54,845 nucleotides of DNA from Candidatus Micrarchaeia archaeon (GTDB lineage Archaea > Micrarchaeota > Micrarchaeia > CABMEP01): the NCBI GenBank assembly GCA_038886535.1, contig JAVZXS010000004.1:1-54845 (forward strand), in the 5' to 3' direction. The notes under the pieces are model-generated. The model was not told the DNA's origin, did no database searches, and saw nothing but the letters and a program-made list of their open reading frames with translations. Position numbers and translations under genes: made by a program. Below, piece after piece: positions 3,698-42,252 of this stretch (within the stretch, counting starts at the first letter, position 1; every line of letters starts with the position of its first letter).

Positions 3698-3756
3698 AGA
3701 TTCAATAGATTTTTAAAATCTGAGATGTATAATTTATATGTCTCTTCTAAAATTTA

Positions 3757-3830
3757 GCGGCGGTAGTCTAGTCTGGTTAGGACGCGGCCTTGCCAAGGCT
3801 GCAACCCGGGTTCAAATCCCGGCCGCCGCA
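3757..3830 (+). tRNA. tRNA-Gly(GCC)
   Basis: GCGGCGG/CCGCCGC acceptor stem; anticodon arm CGGCC-TTGCCAA-GGCTG; T arm CCGGG-TTCAAAT-CCCGG. Confidence 0.97.
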
Positions 3831-3848
3831 TTTATTTTTCTATTAAAA

Positions 3849-4316
3849 TCAGTTCATTAAATAGACATAATAGTTTAGAATTAAGGCAAAACTTACCCAG
3901 AGTATATAGGGAATAATGAGATAGGCTGCAATCTTTGACTCTTTATAGAATGAAAATGTTGTCAATAGAATTGAAATCTAAAGCAATACAATTATTATTA
4001 AAGCCAATAATAAATTCTTTATTCCAAAAAAGGCTACTGACCAAATTGAATTAAGAATTAATTGCAGGAAAAAATGCTTGTATGTATTAAAGTTTTTAGT
4101 TATTTCCTTCTTTTTCCAAACTAAATAAAAAGAAATACCGATTAATAAGTAAAGTAAAGTCCATATTGAACCAAAAACCCAATTTGGTGGATTAAATAAA
4201 GGTTTTGATAGACTGGCATACCATGAATTTATTTCTGGATAGGTAAAAAATGAACCTATTCCACCTGTTAAAAATGGAACCGATAATGCGATTATAATTT
4301 TTTGATAATTTTTCAT
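3849..4316 (-). pseudogene. tspO: TspO/MBR tryptophan-rich sensory protein interrupted by an in-frame TAG at 3978-3980
   Basis: WYASLSKPLFNPPNWVFGSIWTLLY and QLILNSIWSVAFFG motifs. The frame continues past the TAG as ISILLTTFSFYKESKIAAYLIIPYILWVSFALILNYYVYLMN*, giving a normal-length 155 codons. Confidence 0.85.
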
Positions 4317-4930: not shown

Positions 4931-6880
4931 ATGCAATTAGAAGAAGAAGTAGAAAATGCGTTTGGAAAACTTGTTGAAAAAGTGAAAAAAGAAAATGAAA
5001 AAATAGATATAAATGCATTAAGAAAAGCTATTGAATTTGCATCTATAGCACATAAAAATCAGTATAGACTATCTGGAGAGCCATATATTATGCATTGTAT
5101 AGCTGTAGCCGAGATAGTTTCAGATTATCTTAATGATGTGGTTTCAATTCAAGCAGCTATTATTCACGATGTTTGTAGAGATGCTGGAATACCTACTATT
5201 ACTATTGAAAAAGAGTTCGGAGAACAAGTTGCCAAAATAGTTGATGGATTAACAAAAATAGGTAAAATACCTTTCCTAAAGCTTGAACAGGCAGAAGCGG
5301 AGAACATAAGAAAAATGCTTTTAGTACTTAGTAAAGATGTAAGGATTATAATAATAAAACTTGCTGATAGACTTCACAACATGCGAACTATTTCATTCCT
5401 ACCAGAACATAAACAAAAAAGAATGGCAGAAGAAACATTTCAAATCTATATACCTATAGCACATAAACTTAATATAACGAAAATAAAAAATGAGCTTGAA
5501 GATCTTTATCTTTCTGTGATGGAACCAGAAGCTTATTTACAAATAAAAAATGCATTAGAAGAAAAAAGAAAAGGTAAAGAAAAAGAAACGGAAAGGATAA
5601 GAAATGAAATAGAAAAATTACTTAAAGCTAAAGGGATAGATGTAAGAGTAAAAAGCAGAGAAAAGCACATATATTCAATATACAGGAAAATGAAAAGAAA
5701 AGAACTTACCTTTGATCAATTGATGGATTTATTTGCTATAAGAATAATAACTAAGAGAGTAAGTGACTGCTATAGAATATTAGAAATAATTAGCGAAAAT
5801 TATAGAATAATTCCAGAAAGTCTTGATGATTATATTGCATCACCAAAATCAAATATGTATCAATCAATTCATATAAATTTCTTAACTGAAAATGATCAGA
5901 ATATTGAAGCGCAGATAAGAACAGAAGAAATGGATAGAATAGCTGAAATGGGTATAGCTGCACATTGGAAATACAAAGGTCATGGTGAAGAAGAATTCGA
6001 TAAAAAAATAGAATGGATGAAGAATTTATTAGAATGGCAAAAACAAATAACTGAAGAAAATGAGTATATTGAAGGAATAAAGATAGAATTATTTGAAAGA
6101 GGTGTTGTAGTCTTTACACCAAAAGGAGATATGATTGAATTACCTAATGGATCCACTGCACTTGATTTTGCATTTGCATTGCATACATCTATAGGTTTGA
6201 ATGCAGATAAAATAAAAGTAAACGGAAAAATTGTTCCTTTTAATCAAGTTCTCAATGATGGGGATATTGTTGAAGTATTAACTTCTCCTCAGAAAAGAGT
6301 TAATATAAACTGGCTTGGCATAGTTAAAACTTCAAAAGCTAAGGCTAAGATTAGAGCAGCTTTAAACCTTACTGGGCCAAAGAAGAACATTACTAAAGAA
6401 CCAGAAGTTGCAATATCTGAACGTGGAAAAAAAGCAAGAATGGAAAATGGAGAATTAATTGCACAAATAAATTCACCTAATATAAATATTGCAAAATGTT
6501 GTAATCCAACTATCAATGATAAAATTGTTACTTATCCGCCAAAAGACGGTAGATATACAATTCATAGAGCAGACTGTAAAACATTTGAAAAAACAGCAGA
6601 ATTTAAAAGAAAAATAAATGCTAGATGGGAAATACAAACTAATATATATCTACAAAAGATTAATGTAGTCAGCGAGGATAGACCTAAACTATTATCTGAT
6701 TTAATAAAGCTTATTATGGGTCAGCATATTGAAATTAAAAAAATAAATATAAGTGAGACAAAAGATGAAAGAATAATGATAAATTTAGTTCTTGCATATA
6801 ATTCCAATGAACAAATTGAAAAAATAAAGAACGAAGTTAAAAAGATACCAGGTATCAAAGAAGCATTTCTTATTGTTTAG
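4931..6880 (+). CDS. rel: Long RelA/SpoT homolog (HD hydrolase, synthetase, TGS, ZFD, ACT)
   Basis: HKNQYRLSGEPYIMH, IHDV, KLADRLHNMRT, DLFAIRII, DYIASPKSNMYQSIH, EAQIRT, GIAAHWKYK, TGS VFTPKGD..LP.GST.LDFAFALH, AKCCNP..IHRADC, ACT DRPKLLSDL. ATG at 4931 preferred over the GTG at 4922. Confidence 0.95.
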   Translation: MQLEEEVENAFGKLVEKVKKENEKIDINALRKAIEFASIAHKNQYRLSGEPYIMHCIAVAEIVSDYLNDVVSIQAAIIHDVCRDAGIPTITIEKEFGEQVAKIVDGLTKIGKIPFLKLEQAEAENIRKMLLVLSKDVRIIIIKLADRLHNMRTISFLPEHKQKRMAEETFQIYIPIAHKLNITKIKNELEDLYLSVMEPEAYLQIKNALEEKRKGKEKETERIRNEIEKLLKAKGIDVRVKSREKHIYSIYRKMKRKELTFDQLMDLFAIRIITKRVSDCYRILEIISENYRIIPESLDDYIASPKSNMYQSIHINFLTENDQNIEAQIRTEEMDRIAEMGIAAHWKYKGHGEEEFDKKIEWMKNLLEWQKQITEENEYIEGIKIELFERGVVVFTPKGDMIELPNGSTALDFAFALHTSIGLNADKIKVNGKIVPFNQVLNDGDIVEVLTSPQKRVNINWLGIVKTSKAKAKIRAALNLTGPKKNITKEPEVAISERGKKARMENGELIAQINSPNINIAKCCNPTINDKIVTYPPKDGRYTIHRADCKTFEKTAEFKRKINARWEIQTNIYLQKINVVSEDRPKLLSDLIKLIMGQHIEIKKINISETKDERIMINLVLAYNSNEQIEKIKNEVKKIPGIKEAFLIV

Positions 6881-32086: not shown

Positions 32087-35000
32087 TTGATACAAATGAA
32101 AGTATCTGGATTAGTTATTATACTTGTCCTCTTTGCAATCCCTCTAGTTTTCACAGTTAATATCTGTCCTGTAGATAAAAATCCAACTGAAATTATAATT
32201 CAGCATTCAAGGCACCCGATAAATATACCTGTAGGTATAACTGATAATACAATTGATGTTAATATACAGCTTAATGCAATTGATAGGAAAACACAAAATA
32301 GAATACCTCTTGCAAACAAAAATATAACTATAGAATTAGTAATAGGAAGTAAATTTGTAACAAAAAATGCAGCAGGTGAGTTTGTCCTTTCAGATGAATC
32401 AGCACCTTTTGTAGTAAATACAAATGAAAACGGGAGTGTTTCTTTTACAATATATACTCAACCACCCTTATTAGAAAACTCGACAGATCCTAGAAAGATC
32501 TCATATTCAATAACCGCTACATTTACACCGAAACCGAAAGAACCATTTATGGGAAGCGCGAAAACAGAAAGATATGTACCCGGAGTATTTCCGTTAATAA
32601 GTTTGACTGCTTGTGCCCCTCTTTTCATAATATTTGCACTCCTTGTTGCTGCAATGTTTGCATCTGGAAAGAATCCGTTTGGTCTATTTGACTTTTCAAG
32701 AGTTGCATTTAAAGCACCAGGAATCTCTGGAGGTAGAGTCACTACAAGGCAAAGAACTACATTATTAGGTACTGCTGTGGGTGCAGCACAGAGTGCATTA
32801 AAATCTGCTACCTCAACCGGTGCATACAAACTTGCAAAGTTCCTCACTCCCTCAATTGAAGAAGAAAAAAAGGCAAAAGGAACCTTTGGAATATTGCAAA
32901 AGATATCCTCTATACCTGGAAAAGTATTAATGAGTACTACTTCCAGAAGATTGAATAAAGAAGAATTAGAAAAATTAAAGAAAGCGGAACAAGCTGCAAA
33001 AGGAAAACTAACTACACAAGAAATGGAAGATGTATTGGGTGGAAATAGAAGAATTGTTAAAGGAGTTTTTGGTGAAATAAGAGTTGTTACTGCATCAGAT
33101 AAAGTATCAAGTTCATCATTATTAGATTTATTCAGACAAACGTTCTTTCTCTCATTAGGCAGAATGGGTGTAAGACCTTGGAGTTTATCTTATGCTTCGA
33201 TACCTGAGATCAGAAGACCATCAAAAGAGATATACACTAAAGAAGAGCAAGAAGAGATAAAGAATAAAGTAAATTCAACATATGGATATAGTTTTAGTTT
33301 AGAAAAGGGAGATATAGATGTGTATGGATTGACTGAGAAGGGAAAGATGAAAATATTGAATGCGATAGCTAAAGATGAAGTTGCAAATTTAGAAACGTTA
33401 AGAAATGTAATAGAGGCATTAAAAAGAGGGGCAATAGTAAAGCCTGCAGAATTACAAGATATTAGAACATATCTAGATAGTAGAATCCAAAGAATTGAGG
33501 AACAACTAAAATCTGTTTACTTAAGTGATGAACAAAAATCTAGACTTATAAAAGAAAAATCTGATTTAAGTGTAGAAGATACAAATAAATTAATAAGAAA
33601 CTTAGAAAGGATTCTTAAAGAAGATACTGAAAGGCTGCTTAATAGAATTAGTAGCAATGGAGCATTAATAGGTTTTGACAAAGAATCTTTGATAATAGCA
33701 AGAAAAATCAATGCGAAAAAATACTATAGTAACTATGGAGTTGATGAATTTAAGTCCAAATTGAGAGACGTGAAAGAATTGGCTGATGCTTATGGAATTA
33801 ATGTTCAACGAATTTATGAAGCATATGAAAGCGGTGATCCAAGTAAGATTAATACTGTTCTAAAAGAGAACCTAGAATTAATTAAAGACGATTCTAATAA
33901 AATAGCTGCATTTAATTATATTATAAAAGACATACAAATAGGAACTATCCATAGATTTTTAGACCAATTAGAATTGACTGATGAAAAAGGAAGAAAGATA
34001 ACTAATCCCAATGAAAAAATAATTGCCTTTTCTAATATGAATTATGAGTTGCCAGAGAATAAAGAGAAACTCACTAAAAACATAATAGATACATTAGATC
34101 TTGAAAAGAAACTTTACTCAAAAGGATTAGAAAAAGCCGTAAAGATAGTTAATGGAGAGAAAGCGAATGTTACACCAGAAACAGTATTATTTACTGTTTT
34201 AAAGGGTGAAGAAATAATAAATAACAAAATAAAAAACCTTCAAAAAGAACTAGAAGAACTCAATATAAAATATAGAAATCCAACAATTGGTACCCCAGGT
34301 TATGACGAAGTTAAATCTAAAGAAAAGCAGATTGAAGCTGCAAAATTTGAATTAGAAAACGTAAGAAAAGGAACAGAATTCATTAGAAAAGAAAGAGATA
34401 ATCTTTTATTACTGAAAGATATATATGAAAATGCTAAAGATATTCCTTCATTGTCTGCTGTCAGTTCTTTGACTGTAGATTCTGCAATGATAATGAAAAA
34501 AGCACTTGAGGCAGCAGAAATAAAATCTGCTGCAGAAACCACCAGTAGTATAAATTCCGGAAATGGATACACTCGTTATAAACTTGATGAAGCACAAAAA
34601 GACCTAAATAAAGCACTTGAACTCTTATCACCACCATATAAATTAAATGAAAGTGAAATTAAGTTACGAGAAGGCTTAAGTAAAGTAAAAGAAGATTTCG
34701 AAAAATATAATTCTGAAATCTACATTCCCAAAGATAATAATCAAACATTCGCAGTAGCGGGAAAATTAGATTCATTGAATAAGCAAATTAAGGAAGAAAT
34801 ACAAAAACTAGAAACTTCATATAAATCTAAGGAAGTGCATTCACCTGAAGAAAGAACTAGATACAATGAGCTCTTGAAACAGCTTAATAATTTAAATACA
34901 AACATAACTGCAGGTAAAGAGAGAACAGAAGAAGAGATAAAGAAACACATACAAACTAACAGATATAACCCATTCGCAAGTTTAATAGATGAAATTGAAT

Positions 35001-35215
35001 ATAAACACTTTAGTGAAGATGGAATTAAGCCAGAAATATTAGAGAAAAAACTCAACGAAAATAAGATTTTTGGAACTGGAACTATAATCTACATTTATTC
35101 CGGCAAAAAAGAGTATGAGAAGAACATGGAAGAAGAAAAAAGAAAGTGGATTGAAGCTTTTTATAGTGGAGTATCAAAAGGCAAATTTACTGATATTAAA
35201 GTCAAAAATAAATAA
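32087..35215 (+). CDS. Large single-pass membrane protein: signal peptide, Ig-like ectodomain, TM, long coiled-coil-rich region
   Basis: N-terminal hydrophobic leader; beta-rich PLANKNITIEL..TNENGSVSF..YSITATF; TM PLFIIFALLVAAMFA followed by GKNPFGLFDF; ~800 aa K/E/L-rich helical region. Confidence 0.7.
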   Translation: MIQMKVSGLVIILVLFAIPLVFTVNICPVDKNPTEIIIQHSRHPINIPVGITDNTIDVNIQLNAIDRKTQNRIPLANKNITIELVIGSKFVTKNAAGEFVLSDESAPFVVNTNENGSVSFTIYTQPPLLENSTDPRKISYSITATFTPKPKEPFMGSAKTERYVPGVFPLISLTACAPLFIIFALLVAAMFASGKNPFGLFDFSRVAFKAPGISGGRVTTRQRTTLLGTAVGAAQSALKSATSTGAYKLAKFLTPSIEEEKKAKGTFGILQKISSIPGKVLMSTTSRRLNKEELEKLKKAEQAAKGKLTTQEMEDVLGGNRRIVKGVFGEIRVVTASDKVSSSSLLDLFRQTFFLSLGRMGVRPWSLSYASIPEIRRPSKEIYTKEEQEEIKNKVNSTYGYSFSLEKGDIDVYGLTEKGKMKILNAIAKDEVANLETLRNVIEALKRGAIVKPAELQDIRTYLDSRIQRIEEQLKSVYLSDEQKSRLIKEKSDLSVEDTNKLIRNLERILKEDTERLLNRISSNGALIGFDKESLIIARKINAKKYYSNYGVDEFKSKLRDVKELADAYGINVQRIYEAYESGDPSKINTVLKENLELIKDDSNKIAAFNYIIKDIQIGTIHRFLDQLELTDEKGRKITNPNEKIIAFSNMNYELPENKEKLTKNIIDTLDLEKKLYSKGLEKAVKIVNGEKANVTPETVLFTVLKGEEIINNKIKNLQKELEELNIKYRNPTIGTPGYDEVKSKEKQIEAAKFELENVRKGTEFIRKERDNLLLLKDIYENAKDIPSLSAVSSLTVDSAMIMKKALEAAEIKSAAETTSSINSGNGYTRYKLDEAQKDLNKALELLSPPYKLNESEIKLREGLSKVKEDFEKYNSEIYIPKDNNQTFAVAGKLDSLNKQIKEEIQKLETSYKSKEVHSPEERTRYNELLKQLNNLNTNITAGKERTEEEIKKHIQTNRYNPFASLIDEIEYKHFSEDGIKPEILEKKLNENKIFGTGTIIYIYSGKKEYEKNMEEEKRKWIEAFYSGVSKGKFTDIKVKNK

Positions 35216-35290: not shown

Positions 35291-36148
35291 ATGTCGAATG
35301 AAAAGAAAATTAAGGAGATAAAAACTGAAAAAAAGTTCGATTTCAAAAAACGAATTGGAAAACTATTAGCAGAAGGGATTTTAGCTTTAGGTTTATCTGT
35401 AACACCAACCCAAACAAATGCATTCTATAGTATTTATCCATTTACAAACTATGAAAAGATAGAAAAAAGCTTAGAGAGTGTTTGTAGTAAAGGAGATTTA
35501 AAGAAGATAAAATATTATTACTATCTTTATGGCAATTCATTTATAAAGAATTCTGGAGACATAATAATAGAGATTGATGAAAGTATAACTGAATTGGAAA
35601 GGATATATGAAGAGACTAAAAATAAAGCTGTGTTTTTTGTTTTAGAAAAACTGAAAATGAAAAAAGCAGATGCTTTGACAATAATTAATGATGTCGAAGA
35701 AAAAGAATCAATATTAACAGAAACTGATAAGGAAATAAAAGAACTCCTAAAAGACGATCCTTATAATGTTAATTTATTAGAGTTATACCATGATAATGTT
35801 ATATTAAGAATTGAACTTTATTCTGGAGGTTCATTTAATTGGGAAGGAGAGGTAAACATCGATTATCATAAAGCTCGATATGAGGGCTCATTAGAAATTA
35901 AAGATAGAAAGGAAAAGTTTTACAAAACATTAGAGGAATATAAAAAACTACATGAGCTGTTCTTATATCTTAATGATAATTTTAGCAAAAATAAGGATAA
36001 GATAACATCTTATTTTGATCTAACGAATAAAGAAAAAAAAAGAATAATAGAATCAATTAATGTAAAATTGGAAGAGGAAATTAAACTACTTAATACGAAT
36101 ATAAGAACTTTTGAAGAAAGACTAAATGGATTGAGAGGATTTCCTTAA
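35291..36148 (+). CDS. Hypothetical exported helical protein; probable paralog of 87..905
   Basis: Charged N-terminus plus KLLAEGILALGLSVTPTQTNA signal-like segment; shares YEETK with 87..905; GAGGTGG RBS. Confidence 0.6.
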   Translation: MSNEKKIKEIKTEKKFDFKKRIGKLLAEGILALGLSVTPTQTNAFYSIYPFTNYEKIEKSLESVCSKGDLKKIKYYYYLYGNSFIKNSGDIIIEIDESITELERIYEETKNKAVFFVLEKLKMKKADALTIINDVEEKESILTETDKEIKELLKDDPYNVNLLELYHDNVILRIELYSGGSFNWEGEVNIDYHKARYEGSLEIKDRKEKFYKTLEEYKKLHELFLYLNDNFSKNKDKITSYFDLTNKEKKRIIESINVKLEEEIKLLNTNIRTFEERLNGLRGFP

Positions 36149-36231
36149 TTAATAATTATCGTTTCTTTTGCTGAGAGTTTTGACAAAGGAAAAGTAACTA
36201 AAGATATTAAAAAATAAAAACAAATTATAAA

Positions 36232-36510
36232 TCATCTCTTCTTCTGTGCTTTTTGAAGAATTGCCATTGCATTTCTGATTGCTAATTTTACTTCTTTTTC
36301 TGTCTTACAACCAGTACAAATTATCTTTCCATTCTTGAAGAGAAGTAATGACGATTTTGGTTCTCTAAGCTTAAGGATGGCTCCTGGAAATTGCTCAGGC
36401 TCATATTCGATATTTGGAACTTTCCTTCCAAGAGAATAAAGATCCAATTCAATTCCTAAGTTTGCAGATGCTACAATATTTTCAATCTTAAATTTAACAT
36501 CTTTCACCAT
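36232..36510 (-). CDS. tbp: Single-repeat (half-size) TATA-box binding protein homolog
   Basis: KIENIVASANLG..LDL..EYEPEQFPGAILKLREPKSSLLLFKNGKIICTG, then a stop and a T-rich tract; only one TBP repeat (92 aa from the ATG at 36510). Confidence 0.88.
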   Translation of the reverse strand: MVKDVKFKIENIVASANLGIELDLYSLGRKVPNIEYEPEQFPGAILKLREPKSSLLLFKNGKIICTGCKTEKEVKLAIRNAMAILQKAQKKR

Positions 36511-36743
36511 TAAAAACACCCTTTAAAACCCAAATGGGGCTCAACATTTTTAAATGCTTTAAAAATATATACCTCGGAAGGTATTTAAACCTATTTAAAA
36601 AAGTAATAATGGTCATATAAAACTATAGTTTTTGGGATATGGCACATTTTTAAACTTATCCCACTATATTATATTTATTAATTCACACCTTTTGTTTAGG
36701 TAGAGTTAATTGTAACAATTTTTAAGTCAATAGAAGTGATAAT

Positions 36744-37028
36744 ATGGTTAAAGCATCTAAAGGAAGAATGAGCAGGAAAAGCAGAGTGCTTGGAAGAAAA
36801 TCGACTAAAAGAAAAGTTACTGTAGTTGATCAATTAAAAACTATTGAGATAGGAAAAAAGGTACAATTAGTTCCAAATGTTAAGTTCGAAGACTTCCCTC
36901 ATCCAAGATATGCTGGTCGTGTTGGTATAGTTAAAGGAAAACAAGGAAACGCTTATGTAGTAGAAGTAGAAGATGGAGGAGTTAAAAAGAAATTTATAGT
37001 CTCAGCTGTCCACCTAAGAGAATGTTGA
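36744..37028 (+). CDS. rpl21e: Ribosomal protein L21e
   Basis: SKGRMSRKSR, PHPRYAGRVG, KKFIVSAVHL. Confidence 0.95.
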   Translation: MVKASKGRMSRKSRVLGRKSTKRKVTVVDQLKTIEIGKKVQLVPNVKFEDFPHPRYAGRVGIVKGKQGNAYVVEVEDGGVKKKFIVSAVHLREC

Positions 37029-37038
37029 TCTGTAAAAA

Positions 37039-37389
37039 GTGATTGGAATGATAGGTAAAAAAATCCTCGATGTTAAAGAAGTAACGCTTGCTGAAGTAAA
37101 AGAAATACTAGAAATGCCTAGTGAAATAGAAATGGGATTTGAACAGGCAAAGACTTTAGAATATGCAAAAAAAATGACCAAATTAAGCAAAGAAAAGGCA
37201 GAAGAAATGATAAATGAATTAATGAGCGAAGTTACAAAACTAAATAGGGCAAAGGCAGTTAAGATTGTAGATTTAATGCCGAAGAAAAAGGAAGAAATAG
37301 ACCAAATATTCTCAAAGGAAACTTATTCTTTAACGGAAGACGAAGTTAATAAGATATTAGAAATAGTTTCAAAATACCAGAAACAATAG
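37039..37389 (+). CDS. rpoF: RNA polymerase subunit Rpo4 (RpoF)
   Basis: MIGKKIL..VTLAEVKEIL..EQAKTLEYAKK..AVKIVDLMP; conserved position after rpl21e. Confidence 0.92.
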   Translation: MIGMIGKKILDVKEVTLAEVKEILEMPSEIEMGFEQAKTLEYAKKMTKLSKEKAEEMINELMSEVTKLNRAKAVKIVDLMPKKKEEIDQIFSKETYSLTEDEVNKILEIVSKYQKQ

Positions 37390-37402: not shown

Positions 37403-37975
37403 ATGGAAGACTATGGAATTGTAATAGACTATTTACCACTAGGTAAACCAACGGATATCAAAAGAGAACCGGTTGCCTACCTAGTTGGTGAAAGGTTCTT
37501 TACGCTTCTAGAAGTTATAATAAAAAGAAACGTCTCAATTCAGCTCCATAGTAAGCTATATGTAGGAAAAGATTTGAATCAAAGAAAGGAAGTAGAAAGA
37601 ATAAAAGGAAGAGTTGAGTACTCTGAACTTACTGGGGCTGCTAAAAATGAACTGAAAACTGCAATAAAAACAATAGTTAAAAATAGAGAGAGCGATTTTA
37701 TAAATTTTATAAATAAGTGCGGACCGGTAACAATAAGACTACATCAGCTGGAACTTCTTCCAGGTATCGGAAAAAAACATCTTGAAGATATACTCAGAGA
37801 AAGAGAAATCAAACCTTTTGAAAGTTTTGATGATCTTACAAAAAGAGTGCCACATCTACTTAATCCAGTAGAAATGATAGCTGAAAGAATAATAAATGAA
37901 ATGAGTGGTAAGGAAAGGTATTATTTATTCATTAAGCCACCAATGCCGACAACAAGTGGTTTTAGAAGACACTAA
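37403..37975 (+). CDS. DUF655 putative RNA-binding protein
   Basis: IDYLPLGK, GERFFTLLE, RLHQLELLPGIGKK, KPFESFDDL; canonical neighbour of rpo4/ksgA. Confidence 0.92.
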   Translation: MEDYGIVIDYLPLGKPTDIKREPVAYLVGERFFTLLEVIIKRNVSIQLHSKLYVGKDLNQRKEVERIKGRVEYSELTGAAKNELKTAIKTIVKNRESDFINFINKCGPVTIRLHQLELLPGIGKKHLEDILREREIKPFESFDDLTKRVPHLLNPVEMIAERIINEMSGKERYYLFIKPPMPTTSGFRRH

Positions 37976-38675: not shown

Positions 38676-39455
38676 ATGTACAATAAAAGAAAACATTTTG
38701 GCCAGTATATGCTGGAGAATGAAGAGACACTGAAATACGAAGTAGATATGCTGCAACCGAAAGGAAAAGTAGTGCTAGAGATTGGCGGGGGGACTGGAAA
38801 CCTTAGCAGATTGATTGCAGAGACTGCAAAGCACCTTATTATTATCGAAAAAGACTTTAGTTTTGCAGATTCCCTTAAATTTTTATTCAAGAAAAAAAAG
38901 AATGTTACAGTCATAGAAGCTGACTTCTTAGATTTAAATGAAAAAGAGATCCTAGAAGACTCGAAACAAAAAAGGATAGATTTGATAATAAGCAATGTTC
39001 CATATTCTATATCCTCTCCGCTTCTTTTCAAGCTTAAGGAATTTAATTTTGAAAAGGCTATTCTCTGCTTGCAGAAGGAATTCGTAGAGAGAATGATAGC
39101 AAAACCAGGCGAAAAGGATTGGTCAAGATTAAGTGTGATGACTAACTACTACTTTAAACCAATATATCTAAAGAAAGTTCCTAAAGGAAGCTTTAAACCA
39201 GTACCTAAAGTTGATTCTGCAATTGTTATGCTGTTCAAAAGAGAAAAAACAGATAACCCTGAATTCGATAAATTCATAGAGCGACTCTTTTCACATAGGA
39301 AAAAAACATTAGGTGCAGCAGCAAAAGCAAAGGAGTTAATGAGCGAGTATCCAAAATTAATTTTAGTTGCTGAAAAACTCGGTATGCAAAAAAGAAGAGT
39401 ATTCACATTAACTATAGAAGAATTGGAAAAAGTTCATTCAATGTTAAAAGAATAA
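38676..39455 (+). CDS. ksgA: 16S rRNA adenine dimethyltransferase KsgA/RsmA
   Basis: FGQYML, VLEIGGGTG, SNVPYSISSP, LQKEFVERM, FKPVPKVDSA. Confidence 0.95.
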   Translation: MYNKRKHFGQYMLENEETLKYEVDMLQPKGKVVLEIGGGTGNLSRLIAETAKHLIIIEKDFSFADSLKFLFKKKKNVTVIEADFLDLNEKEILEDSKQKRIDLIISNVPYSISSPLLFKLKEFNFEKAILCLQKEFVERMIAKPGEKDWSRLSVMTNYYFKPIYLKKVPKGSFKPVPKVDSAIVMLFKREKTDNPEFDKFIERLFSHRKKTLGAAAKAKELMSEYPKLILVAEKLGMQKRRVFTLTIEELEKVHSMLKE

Positions 39456-39522: not shown

Positions 39523-41076
39523 TTAACTTACTAATTCAATTAGCATCTTCTTTACTTTCCCAGGGCCTATGGCATGAATAAGCTTTCCTAATTTAGGACC
39601 TCTATCCTTGCCTATTAATGCAGTGTATAATGTCTTAAAGAAATCTTTAGGCTCTATTCCTAATGATTTAGCTGTATCAAAAACAAGATTATGAATGTCC
39701 AGTGGATCCATTTTATCATCAAGCCTTTCTGCAAACTCTTTTATTCCTCGTGTATCTAATGGTTTTTTCGGATTTATTGAAAATGAATAATCTTCTGGCA
39801 CATACCCATTCTCTATCCAATAAATAATATATGGTTTTAGATATTCAACCCCTTCTGGATCATCGAAAAGAGACTTCACCCTTTCCCAATCTCTGTATAT
39901 CTGATAGTAAAGAAGAATGTCCAAGAATTTTGCCTTCCATTTTCTTTCACCGCTTATCTCATAGGCAATTCTTTTCTTTCTATCTGCCCTGCTAAGTGTT
40001 TCCTTTGGCTGTGAAAGGGTGCTTGCATATTCATAATCCTCAAATATAAGAAGCATGTTCTGACCTGTAGGATCAAAGTTCTTATCCTCCTGTGAATCTG
40101 ACCTGTATATGAAATATTTGATTACTTCTGGTGGCATTAGCTTTAAAACCGTATTAACATCCAACCCTATTCCTTTCGATTTGGAATACTTCTTTCCACC
40201 TAAAAGGAAAAATCCGAATCTGTAGAAAAACGGTGGTTTTCTACCCAATATCTTTTCATGCATTTCCCTTGCAGTATCTGCTGACCCTCCCCTAGTAGCA
40301 TGATCCTTTCCAAAACCTTCTATTGTGACATTAAGAAAATCCTGTCTTGAAGGCCATTCTACTCTCCAAACTAGCTTGTATTGATGATCACTTATTCTTG
40401 CCTTTCCTTCATGACCGCATCCTTTTGTATACTCAACATCCTTATTGCACTTATAATAATAATATTCTCCATCAAAACCAGTAACTGTACAGGTAGATAT
40501 CTTTCCACATTTTTCACATATCGGAGCTATTGGAGACCAGTTTTCCCATTCTTTGCCCTCTTTTTTTCTTAGAGAGGATTCAAAAACAACATCTCTAACC
40601 TTCTCACGTTCATTCAGATATTTTATTGCGTACTTATCATAGAGTCCTTTTGCATAAAGATCGCTGTTTCTCACTATCTCTGGATTGACCTTAAATCTCT
40701 TCATTAGATCTGCTGCCTCAGAAAGAAAATGATCCCCGTAAGATTCATGGCATCCGAATGGATCTGGGACATGTACCAGAGGCTTTCCTAAATGAGGTTC
40801 TAACACGTCTTTGAACCTTTCTAATGGTTTAGGAATTGAGTCAAAGGCGTCCATTATGTCTCCAATGAATATGAATCGAACATCATAACCGTTGTTTTTG
40901 AAGTATGACACAATTGCATTTGGGTATATGAATTCGCTTGCTGTTCCTATATGAGTAGGTCCACTAGTTGTTATACCTGATGCAACTACAAATGGTGGAT
41001 TAGTGGATGATAATATCTCTTTTACTAATACTGAAACCCAGTGTTCTGATATTTTATCCTCTTTTATCTCTTGCAT
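39523..41076 (-). CDS. lysS: Class I lysyl-tRNA synthetase
   Basis: SGITTSGPTHIG (HIGH), KLVWRVEWPSR, GKDHATRGGS, KYSKSKG (KMSKS), GPKLG. Confidence 0.96.
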   Translation of the reverse strand: MQEIKEDKISEHWVSVLVKEILSSTNPPFVVASGITTSGPTHIGTASEFIYPNAIVSYFKNNGYDVRFIFIGDIMDAFDSIPKPLERFKDVLEPHLGKPLVHVPDPFGCHESYGDHFLSEAADLMKRFKVNPEIVRNSDLYAKGLYDKYAIKYLNEREKVRDVVFESSLRKKEGKEWENWSPIAPICEKCGKISTCTVTGFDGEYYYYKCNKDVEYTKGCGHEGKARISDHQYKLVWRVEWPSRQDFLNVTIEGFGKDHATRGGSADTAREMHEKILGRKPPFFYRFGFFLLGGKKYSKSKGIGLDVNTVLKLMPPEVIKYFIYRSDSQEDKNFDPTGQNMLLIFEDYEYASTLSQPKETLSRADRKKRIAYEISGERKWKAKFLDILLYYQIYRDWERVKSLFDDPEGVEYLKPYIIYWIENGYVPEDYSFSINPKKPLDTRGIKEFAERLDDKMDPLDIHNLVFDTAKSLGIEPKDFFKTLYTALIGKDRGPKLGKLIHAIGPGKVKKMLIELVS

Positions 41077-41133
41077 AAAATCACTTAATAAATATATAAG
41101 TAATAAAATTTAAACTTATCTCAATAATTTATA

Positions 41134-42252
41134 ATGATGATAAAATTTGTAATGCCTAAAGTATGTAAAAGATGCTGGAACAGGAATGGATTCTCTAAAG
41201 TTAGTTCTGAATTCATAGAAAATGAACAGGAATGCAAACTTTGCAATGGTTGCTTCTTAAAATTAAATGAAATAGCAGATAGAATAATAAAAGAATTAGA
41301 ATCAATTCCAGGAATACGGACATTTAGTATAGGAACAAGTATACCAAAGGAATCAGAGGCTATAGAGGAAAAAATCTGGGATTTTGCTGAATTTAACAAA
41401 TGGAAAAGCATAAAACCTGAATTAAACACTGAATTAGGGAAAATAATAGAAAAGAAAACAAAATATAAATTCAGCCAAGATCCTGATGTAAGAATTATAT
41501 ATGATATTAAAAATAATAAGATATCAAAGCAAATATCCTCTGTTTATCTGTATGGAAAATACAATAAGCTTCAAAGAGGAATAAGACAAACAAAAAAGGA
41601 GGATGCAAAAGAGGAATCTGTTGAGGGACTGATAGAGAGAATCTTGATAAAAGAAATTGGCACTGAAAAAAGCAAGGCGATTTTGCATGGTAGTGGTAGG
41701 GAAGACATAGATGTATTGATGTTGGGTGAGGGAAGACCTTTTGTAATGGAAGTGACTAATCCAAGAAAAAGAGTATTAAATGAAAAGGAAATAGAAAGAA
41801 TAAATAATATTATAAATAAAATAAATGAAGGAAAGATAAAGGTAAAGTTTGAGAAAATAGTAAATAAAGAATGGGTAGAGATAATAAAGAGAGCTAAATT
41901 TGACAAGGAATATGAAGCAATAGTGAATCTGGAAAAACCTATTGATAAGAATGAAATTTATAAATTACCTAAAAGTGTTTTATTAATGCAAAGAACCCCT
42001 AAAAGAGTGCTTATAAGAAGATCTGATCTTATTAGGAAAAGAAGAATAAAGATGCTTAAACCAGAATGGATTGACAGCCATACAATAAAACTGCATATAC
42101 TATCTGAATCCGGTACTTATATTAAAGAATTCATAAGTGGAGATGAAGGAAGAACGCAACCTAGCATATCATCACTTCTTAAAACAAATGCTACATGCAA
42201 AGAGCTAAACGTTATTTCTATCCATAGTGAATGGCTGGATGATTTATGGTGA
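41134..42252 (+). CDS. pus10: tRNA pseudouridine(54/55) synthase Pus10
   Basis: N-terminal CxxC pairs, GKYNKLQRGIRQT, HGSGREDIDVLMLGEGRPF, QRTPKRV, GTYIKEFISGDEGRTQPS. Confidence 0.95.
   Translation: MMIKFVMPKVCKRCWNRNGFSKVSSEFIENEQECKLCNGCFLKLNEIADRIIKELESIPGIRTFSIGTSIPKESEAIEEKIWDFAEFNKWKSIKPELNTELGKIIEKKTKYKFSQDPDVRIIYDIKNNKISKQISSVYLYGKYNKLQRGIRQTKKEDAKEESVEGLIERILIKEIGTEKSKAILHGSGREDIDVLMLGEGRPFVMEVTNPRKRVLNEKEIERINNIINKINEGKIKVKFEKIVNKEWVEIIKRAKFDKEYEAIVNLEKPIDKNEIYKLPKSVLLMQRTPKRVLIRRSDLIRKRRIKMLKPEWIDSHTIKLHILSESGTYIKEFISGDEGRTQPSISSLLKTNATCKELNVISIHSEWLDDLW

Follow-up and report, generated by a model that had tools for sequence, protein, structure and literature searches.

Can an archaeon mark its promoters with half of a TATA-binding protein (TBP), and if so, how would it do this and how did it come to it? 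To our knowledge, TBP has been described as two-lobed and pseudo-symmetric in every archaeon and eukaryote, and the textbook idea that it arose from a single lobe acting as a homodimer is one for which we know of no living example. The window analysed here, a stretch of 54,845 nucleotides, belongs to Candidatus Micrarchaeia archaeon, a DPANN archaeon (NCBI phylum name Microcaldota) with near-identical contigs from hot-spring metagenomes, and it carries a TBP gene with a single repeat. The host assembly comprises 1.14 Mb in 40 contigs, with 33% G+C, and is 88% complete.

The gene occupies 36232..36510 on the minus strand. Read from the sequence, it runs from an ATG at 36510 through 92 codons to a TGA stop at 36234..36232; the translation, Pfam, an AF2 model and dN/dS all bear on its assignment. 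A Shine-Dalgarno-like GGGTG (36517..36521, minus strand) stands 6 nt 5' of the ATG. The list of open reading frames also has a 95-aa form of the gene that starts with a GTG at 36519. Because this GTG lies inside the Shine-Dalgarno-like GGGTG and the orthologues begin M[VTA]KD, the ATG at 36510 is the likelier start. Downstream of the stop follows a T-rich tract (about 36200..36231, minus strand), which on the coding strand reads TTTATAATTTGTTTTTATTTTTT (reverse complement of about 36207..36231) and is likely an archaeal oligo-T terminator. The gene has its own Shine-Dalgarno-like motif, stop and T run, as the original prediction described.

The 92-aa protein matches Pfam PF00352 in one stretch, residues 6-87 against profile positions 1-84 of 85, with 103.8 bits (E 4.2e-30; the cut-off is 22.9 bits), a match far beyond chance. 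Instead of two tandem repeats per polypeptide it has exactly one, which confirms the central claim of the original prediction. The motifs noticed at that time, NIVAS, the stirrup EYEPEQFPG and the two Phe positions, the second in LLF, are all present and align with both repeats of 2z8u, 1mp9 and 1ais. In phmmer comparisons, the protein scores about equally against either half of solved TBPs (N/C lobes, in bits: 2z8u, 68.0/69.1; 1mp9, 74.2/59.8; 1ais, 63.2/70.5), and its identity to canonical lobes is 40-46%. In other archaea, only 4 alignment columns tell N lobes from C lobes, too few for assigning the single lobe to either type.

In an alignment of 39 one-repeat orthologues, which are 47-99% identical to the 92-aa protein, the following are invariant in 39/39: N11, I12, V13, A16, L18, L22, D23, L24, Y36-I45 (YEPEQFPGAI), L56, F58-K62, I64, C65 and G67. 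Among these, F41 and F58 match the Phe residues found in each lobe of 2z8u, 1mp9 and 1ais in the alignment, and E37 and E39 (in YEPEQ) match the YEPEQ of the 1ais C lobe. F41, the Phe of QFPG, we take to be the DNA-contacting Phe on the stirrup side. The available part of Ravarani 2020 (PMC7221094) gives the loop-5 Phe of TBP as the TATA contact and assigns the contact with TFB/TFIIB to two C-lobe loop 3 glutamates (E284 and E286 in human). Going by the alignment with the 1ais C lobe, their counterparts here would be F58 and the pair E37 and E39. The monomer modelled with AF2 from the orthologue alignment (pLDDT 87.8, pTM 0.75) has strands at 12-17, 34-36, 44-48, 53-57 and 62-68 and helices at 24-30 and 71-90, that is, the helix-grip fold of a TBP lobe. 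All 44 Foldseek matches at E<=0.001 are TBP entries, and the best overlays place the model on one lobe of solved TBPs (TM 0.80-0.83, rmsd 0.8-1.0 Å over 78-79 columns).

The gene also sits at the TBP locus of the chromosome. It is separated from its neighbours by 83 nt downstream and 233 nt upstream, and it diverges from a conserved operon, L21e-RpoF(Rpo4)-DUF655-(Yip1)-KsgA. The divergent intergenic region, 36511..36743 (233 nt), is common to the TBP gene and rpl21e and contains A/T-rich, TATA-like stretches that may serve both genes. The operon begins with ribosomal protein L21e (36744..37028, plus strand; PF01157, 49.3 bits), which adjoins TBP in one- and two-repeat relatives, and continues in conserved synteny on the plus strand with the RNA polymerase subunit Rpo4/RpoF of the Rpb4 family (37039..37389; PF03874, 44.4 bits), a DUF655 protein (37403..37975; PF04919, 202.9 bits) and the rRNA adenine dimethylase KsgA/Dim1 (38676..39455; PF00398, 168.8 bits). 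TBP diverges from L21e-RpoF-DUF655(-KsgA) in the one-repeat families f1 (that of the host), f3, f5 (its A-type copy), f6, f7, f8, f10, f11, f12, f15 and f21-f26. A two-repeat TBP sits at the same place in families f4, f9, f13, f14, f16 and f19 and in Iainarchaeia. The one-repeat gene is a positional orthologue of the two-repeat TBPs of relatives, and the search for single-repeat orthologues beside rpl21e, proposed with the original prediction, finds them in many families. On the other side of the TBP gene lie two plus-strand ORFs of 1042 and 285 aa (32087..35215 and 35291..36148) with no Pfam match. In both, the N-terminal part has hydrophobic stretches and long regions are rich in Lys/Glu; beside TBP, the two are conserved within the genus only.

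Searches of the whole host genome show that the 92-aa gene is the only TBP in the assembly. With PF00352 at E<=10, we found the TBP gene and one weak domain of 26.5 bits in another protein; with an unfiltered HMM specific to the TBP lobes of the clade, the sole significant match was the TBP gene itself (137.2 bits, E 9.2e-41). The original prediction saw no remnant of a second repeat on either side, and this holds more widely: no second repeat or remnant came up in the flanks or across the genome's 15,840 stop-to-stop frames (30 aa or longer), the next best match having an E of 0.29. Since the host assembly is 88% complete, the absence of a second gene rests partly on relatives, and a two-repeat TBP was found neither in the host assembly nor in genomes of the same genus that are 90-92% complete. 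The host has one gene for TFB, with two cyclin repeats. Upstream of its 791 ORFs, TATA-like words are more frequent at -50..-6 than at -100..-56 (TTATAT, 121 vs 54; TATATA, 111 vs 46; TTTATATA, 23 vs 5), and AAGGTG and AAAGGAGG are likewise enriched upstream of the ORFs. An EM motif search in the 75 nt upstream of the same ORFs returned weak A/T and Shine-Dalgarno-like patterns and no usable TATA/BRE model.

The one-repeat state is not peculiar to this genome. We surveyed the class with PF00352 at E<=1e-10 in 193 genomes, namely the host genome (88% complete) and genomes at least 90% complete; the tallies take in two unpublished genomes (G120 and G188), and gene layouts come from the matches listed and 80 regions examined. 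Six genomes had no TBP match. Exactly one match was found in 52 genomes: all 4 of f1, further f3, f6, f8, f11, f12, f15, f20 and f23-f27, parts of f7, f10 and f22, and one of f5. Among them are G112 and G124, each a single contig, and G017, G014 and G024, which are 97-100% complete. Two matches occurred in 62 genomes (f4, f9, f13, f14, f16-f19), both in one frame of 188-264 aa among the matches listed. The other 73 genomes (f5; parts of f10, f7, f21, f22 and f3) had two to four matches, which, among those listed, were separate, short, unlinked one-repeat frames. The one-repeat state is seen across more than 20 families; the single-repeat TBP characterises much of the class rather than one genome, a spread that the original prediction did not foresee. 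Close relatives in the genus, family and order of the host have the one-repeat gene, and two repeats at this locus appear only in distant families of the class, so that the two-repeat gene in close relatives that could have spoken for a recent truncation is missing.

How would a single lobe mark a promoter? We consider it probable that the 92-aa protein is the general TBP of this organism reduced to one lobe, and that it works as a symmetric homodimer whose direction comes from TFB and the BRE. This reading is based on the conservation of the gene, its positional orthology and the DNA- and TFB-contacting residues that it keeps; that two chains dimerise, bind TATA and are oriented by TFB is what we infer from these. 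Canonical archaeal TBPs (two fused repeats, about 180-200 aa; 2z8u of M. jannaschii, 1mp9 of S. acidocaldarius, 1ais/1pcz of P. woesei) have in common with it the PF00352 family, the lobe fold, the Phe positions and the stirrup glutamates, and its chromosomal locus is also that of the two-repeat TBPs in related Micrarchaeia and Iainarchaeia. The canonical protein has two repeats per chain, whereas the host protein has one; a saddle would therefore need two chains and would be exactly symmetric. In canonical TBP, strand S1 of one lobe forms a pair with S1' of the second. A couple of identical chains of 92 aa may likewise join via their edge strand S1 (the invariant ENIVAS) and rebuild the ten-stranded saddle that two fused repeats make in canonical TBP: Each chain would contribute one pair of DNA-kinking Phe residues (F41 and F58) and one stirrup with the TFB-contacting E37 and E39. 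As such a saddle would be fully symmetric, TBP itself could not set the direction of transcription, and direction would come from a single TFB reading the BRE beside the TATA box. In archaeal pre-initiation complexes, orientation comes from TFB-BRE, not from TBP. Lobe symmetry is tolerated in this clade, where gene conversion keeps the lobes of the two-repeat relatives alike. A point against this reading is that two identical, TFB-competent stirrups could lead to pre-initiation complexes in both directions.

The protein might instead act as a monomer, or dimerise only on DNA: It would then bind a half-site, kink the DNA once and give a promoter mark that is weaker than a preformed saddle and different in mechanism. 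There is a precedent for single copies in the N-terminal domain of bacterial RNase HIII, which, according to the available parts of Brindefalk 2013 (PMC3597702) and Ravarani 2020 (PMC7221094), has a single helix-grip TBP fold and binds duplex nucleic acid. In this TBP-like domain, Tyr or His replaces the loop-5 Phe (PMC7221094, available part), and RNase HIII differs further in being a multidomain enzyme with no stirrup glutamates and no role in initiation. The host protein, by contrast, retains the complete sequence signature of TBP, being 40-46% identical to canonical lobes, and its S1 edge strand is invariant in all 39 orthologues, which an interface explains more easily than solvent exposure. 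We regard a monomer as unlikely.

A heterodimer, in which the lobe pairs with a second, unrecognised partner, has one candidate in a 269-aa protein encoded on another contig of the host (C2 of G000, about 40889..41707; L002 1480..2289). This TBP-V4R protein, the source of the weak 26.5-bit match in the genome-wide search, joins an N-terminal TBP-like domain (24.1 bits) to a C-terminal V4R domain (41.5 bits), and its gene stands between two ORFs of about 230 aa that by eye resemble RecA/KaiC-type ATPases. The class does offer examples of two different lobes. Family f5 and part of f10 have two unlinked, divergent one-repeat genes. In Micrarchaeaceae (A_DKE and the f5 loci L101-L110), the copy at the L21e locus is of A-type, and the second, a divergent B-type, lies elsewhere; the cultured Ca. 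Micrarchaeum sp. A_DKE, with a closed genome (NZ_CP060530.1, L212), has two such unlinked one-repeat genes and no two-repeat gene. This arrangement suggests a two-chain TBP, and since these genomes have a second, divergent lobe gene elsewhere, a heterodimer is likely in the f5 lineages. Many relatives have two different one-repeat genes, a sign that some lineages favour a heterodimer and a point against the homodimer reading. The host lineage f1 belongs to the same class and has the same one-lobe architecture at the same locus, but it has a single gene: The B-type paralogue of f5 and f10 scores 80-90 bits with Pfam and so is detectable, and none was found in the host. As for the TBP-V4R protein, it lacks the YEPEQFPG stirrup when its sequence is read by eye, it is matched in only 4/7 genomes of the genus (in G003 weakly), and it has no match in two genus members that are 92% and 90% complete (G004 and G005) or in other one-repeat families. 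A heterodimer in the host is thus, in our estimate, quite improbable.

The original prediction named two possible roles, a homodimer that forms a fully symmetric TBP, or a regulator or decoy alongside a canonical TBP elsewhere. Of these, the homodimer stands as the best explanation of the sequence data, and the second role has fared badly. Its canonical two-repeat partner would have to lie in the unassembled 12% of the genome; the genome-wide search of the 88%-complete assembly did not find it. Published monopartite TBP-domain proteins could be cited in favour of such a role, as those described in the available part of Brindefalk 2013 (PMC3597702), the halobacterial TbpA and a Thermococcales group, all coexist with full TBPs. 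According to the same part of that paper, TbpA consists of one TBP domain standing alone, groups with genuine TBP lobes, is non-essential and occurs beside several full-length TBPs; the Thermococcales proteins are 82-136 aa long and highly diverged, and every genome in its Table 3 also has a TBP of 174-192 aa. The host protein resembles TbpA, as there described, in that a single TBP domain makes up the whole protein, and the Thermococcales group in its length and its one TBP-like domain. It differs from both in being the only TBP found: It is 40-46% identical to canonical lobes, it occupies the TBP locus itself across a large clade, and no full-length TBP accompanies it in the host or in its near-complete or single-contig relatives. 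Since 52/193 genomes of the class have one repeat only, two of them (G112 and G124) as single contigs, and the closed A_DKE genome also lacks a two-repeat TBP, we consider a regulator or decoy very improbable.

Identical runs of up to 95 nt between the repeats of two-repeat relatives could collapse in a short-read assembly, but a collapsed tandem repeat, or a recent truncation or pseudogene, is scarcely credible here: Several species show the gene in assemblies of their own, contigs from another sample span it, more than 20 families are in the one-repeat state and dN/dS is 0.02-0.035. Related species, each assembled separately, have this 92-aa gene with 100% (L022), 99% (L023), 98% (L024) and 91% (L025) protein identity. 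Logan contigs of two samples span the TBP locus without indels or joints; one is a 42-kb contig, which may itself be the source, and in the second sample a contig of 539 nt covers 36234..36772 with zero differences. The assembly deletion that was named beforehand as a way for the prediction to fail is contradicted by this agreement. Comparison with same-genus orthologues gave 20 synonymous and 2 non-synonymous differences (dN/dS 0.021), 13 and 2 (0.035), and 15 and 0: The gene is under strong purifying selection. The one-repeat TBP is neither an artefact nor a remnant, and the one-repeat state in the host lineage is ancient under either evolutionary polarity.

The two-repeat relatives provide clues to how one-repeat genes may arise or be lost. 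Identity between N and C lobes is 57-73% in 13 Micrarchaeia genes (f4, f9, f13, f14, f16 and f19), 44-56% in 5 further Micrarchaeota genes, 44-58% in Iainarchaeia and 38-53% in other archaea, with one outlier at 25%. At the nucleotide level, the longest identical run between the N and C lobes within a gene was 15-95 nt in 12 genes (at least 31 nt in 10/12), and third-position identity at identical residues was 0.58-0.88; an ungapped N-C comparison for L073 was out of register and is left aside. For the same lobe compared between species (152 pairs of 60-90% protein identity), the longest run had a median of 11 and a maximum of 32, and third-position identity a median of 0.39 and a maximum of 0.67. 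Substitutions peculiar to one species turn up in the N as well as the C lobe of a two-repeat gene (L017, L021 and L121-L132, in the six families just named). From the identical runs and these recurring substitutions, we conclude that gene conversion between the lobes, that is, concerted evolution, is ongoing. We propose that the identical tracts open a ready route both ways: Recombination between them can remove exactly one repeat in frame, and unequal exchange can add one.

Trees bear on which way the changes may have gone. In a lobe tree of 116 rows and 92 columns, built by a quick search, the N, C and single lobes of Micrarchaeia and Iainarchaeia form one clade apart from other archaeal lobes (SH-aLRT 99); archaeon GW2011_AR10, whose complete genome has a normal two-repeat gene, is among the Iainarchaeia sequences. 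The classical topology, all 28 N against all 28 C lobes, is not rejected in an AU test (log-likelihood difference 22.3, p-AU 0.162), so the lobe tree alone is unable to show a re-duplication. We also built a locus tree from the four genes next to TBP (a quick LG+G4 run on 66 loci and 654 columns, with Iainarchaeia as the root), which describes linked genes and is not a species tree. In it, the host family f1 belongs to a deep clade of one-repeat families only, with f3, f8, f12, f15 and f24-f26 (support 88); f7, f11 and f21-f23 form a second such clade (support 99); and every two-repeat family falls within a third clade, which also includes the one-repeat f6 and f5+f10 (support 94). By this tree, with its modest supports and four linked genes, a one-repeat base of Micrarchaeia followed by re-doubling takes 2-3 changes and repeated collapse 3-4. 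A possible history, which we put forward tentatively and hold to be somewhat short of an even chance, is that the TBP of Micrarchaeia toggles between one and two lobes through recombination of conversion-homogenised repeats, with a self-sufficient one-lobe homodimer as the ancestral state and the two-lobe genes of some families secondarily re-created. If true, this toggling with secondary re-doubling would repeat in nature the duplication and fusion from which TBP arose.

A large archaeal clade with one lobe as its only TBP would be a living example of the supposed TBP ancestor. It would permit direct tests of a symmetric saddle as a promoter mark, of direction given by TFB/BRE alone and of the benefit of fusion. 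Material is within reach in the form of the 92-aa protein and of the cultured A_DKE, whose closed genome carries only one-lobe genes, and sister families present natural one-gene, two-gene and fused versions to compare. Our full-text literature search, which covered main texts, found no paper on a single-repeat protein as sole TBP, the nearest being Brindefalk 2013; two comparative DPANN papers simply list TBP as present (PMC8407392; bioRxiv 10.1101/2021.01.12.426361). Short TBP proteins are present in public databases: A PF00352-type TBP search of a protein database returned 942 proteins of 50-161 aa at E<=1e-10, and the public names of such proteins, where they are named, are 'hypothetical protein', 'TATA-box-binding protein' or 'TATA-box-binding protein, partial', which makes the single-repeat form a matter for annotation as well.

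Several smaller observations were made among the TBP loci of the survey. In some f7 genomes, the one-repeat TBP is present as two or three near-identical copies, with three loci on contig C1 of G034; at L027, two near-identical copies lie about 1 kb apart (3711..4019 and 4980..5294). A divergent two-repeat TBP (L118, on the 3.7-kb contig C77 of G116) was found in an f10 genome that also has one-repeat genes; its lobes form long branches beside Methanomassiliicoccales lobes, and the contig may be a mis-binned one of another archaeon. Finally, archaeal TBP contigs appear under bacterial names (L039, L167, L215 and protein P0007; Chloroflexota, Acidiferrales/Acidoferrum and Brevinematia) and are probably mis-binned.
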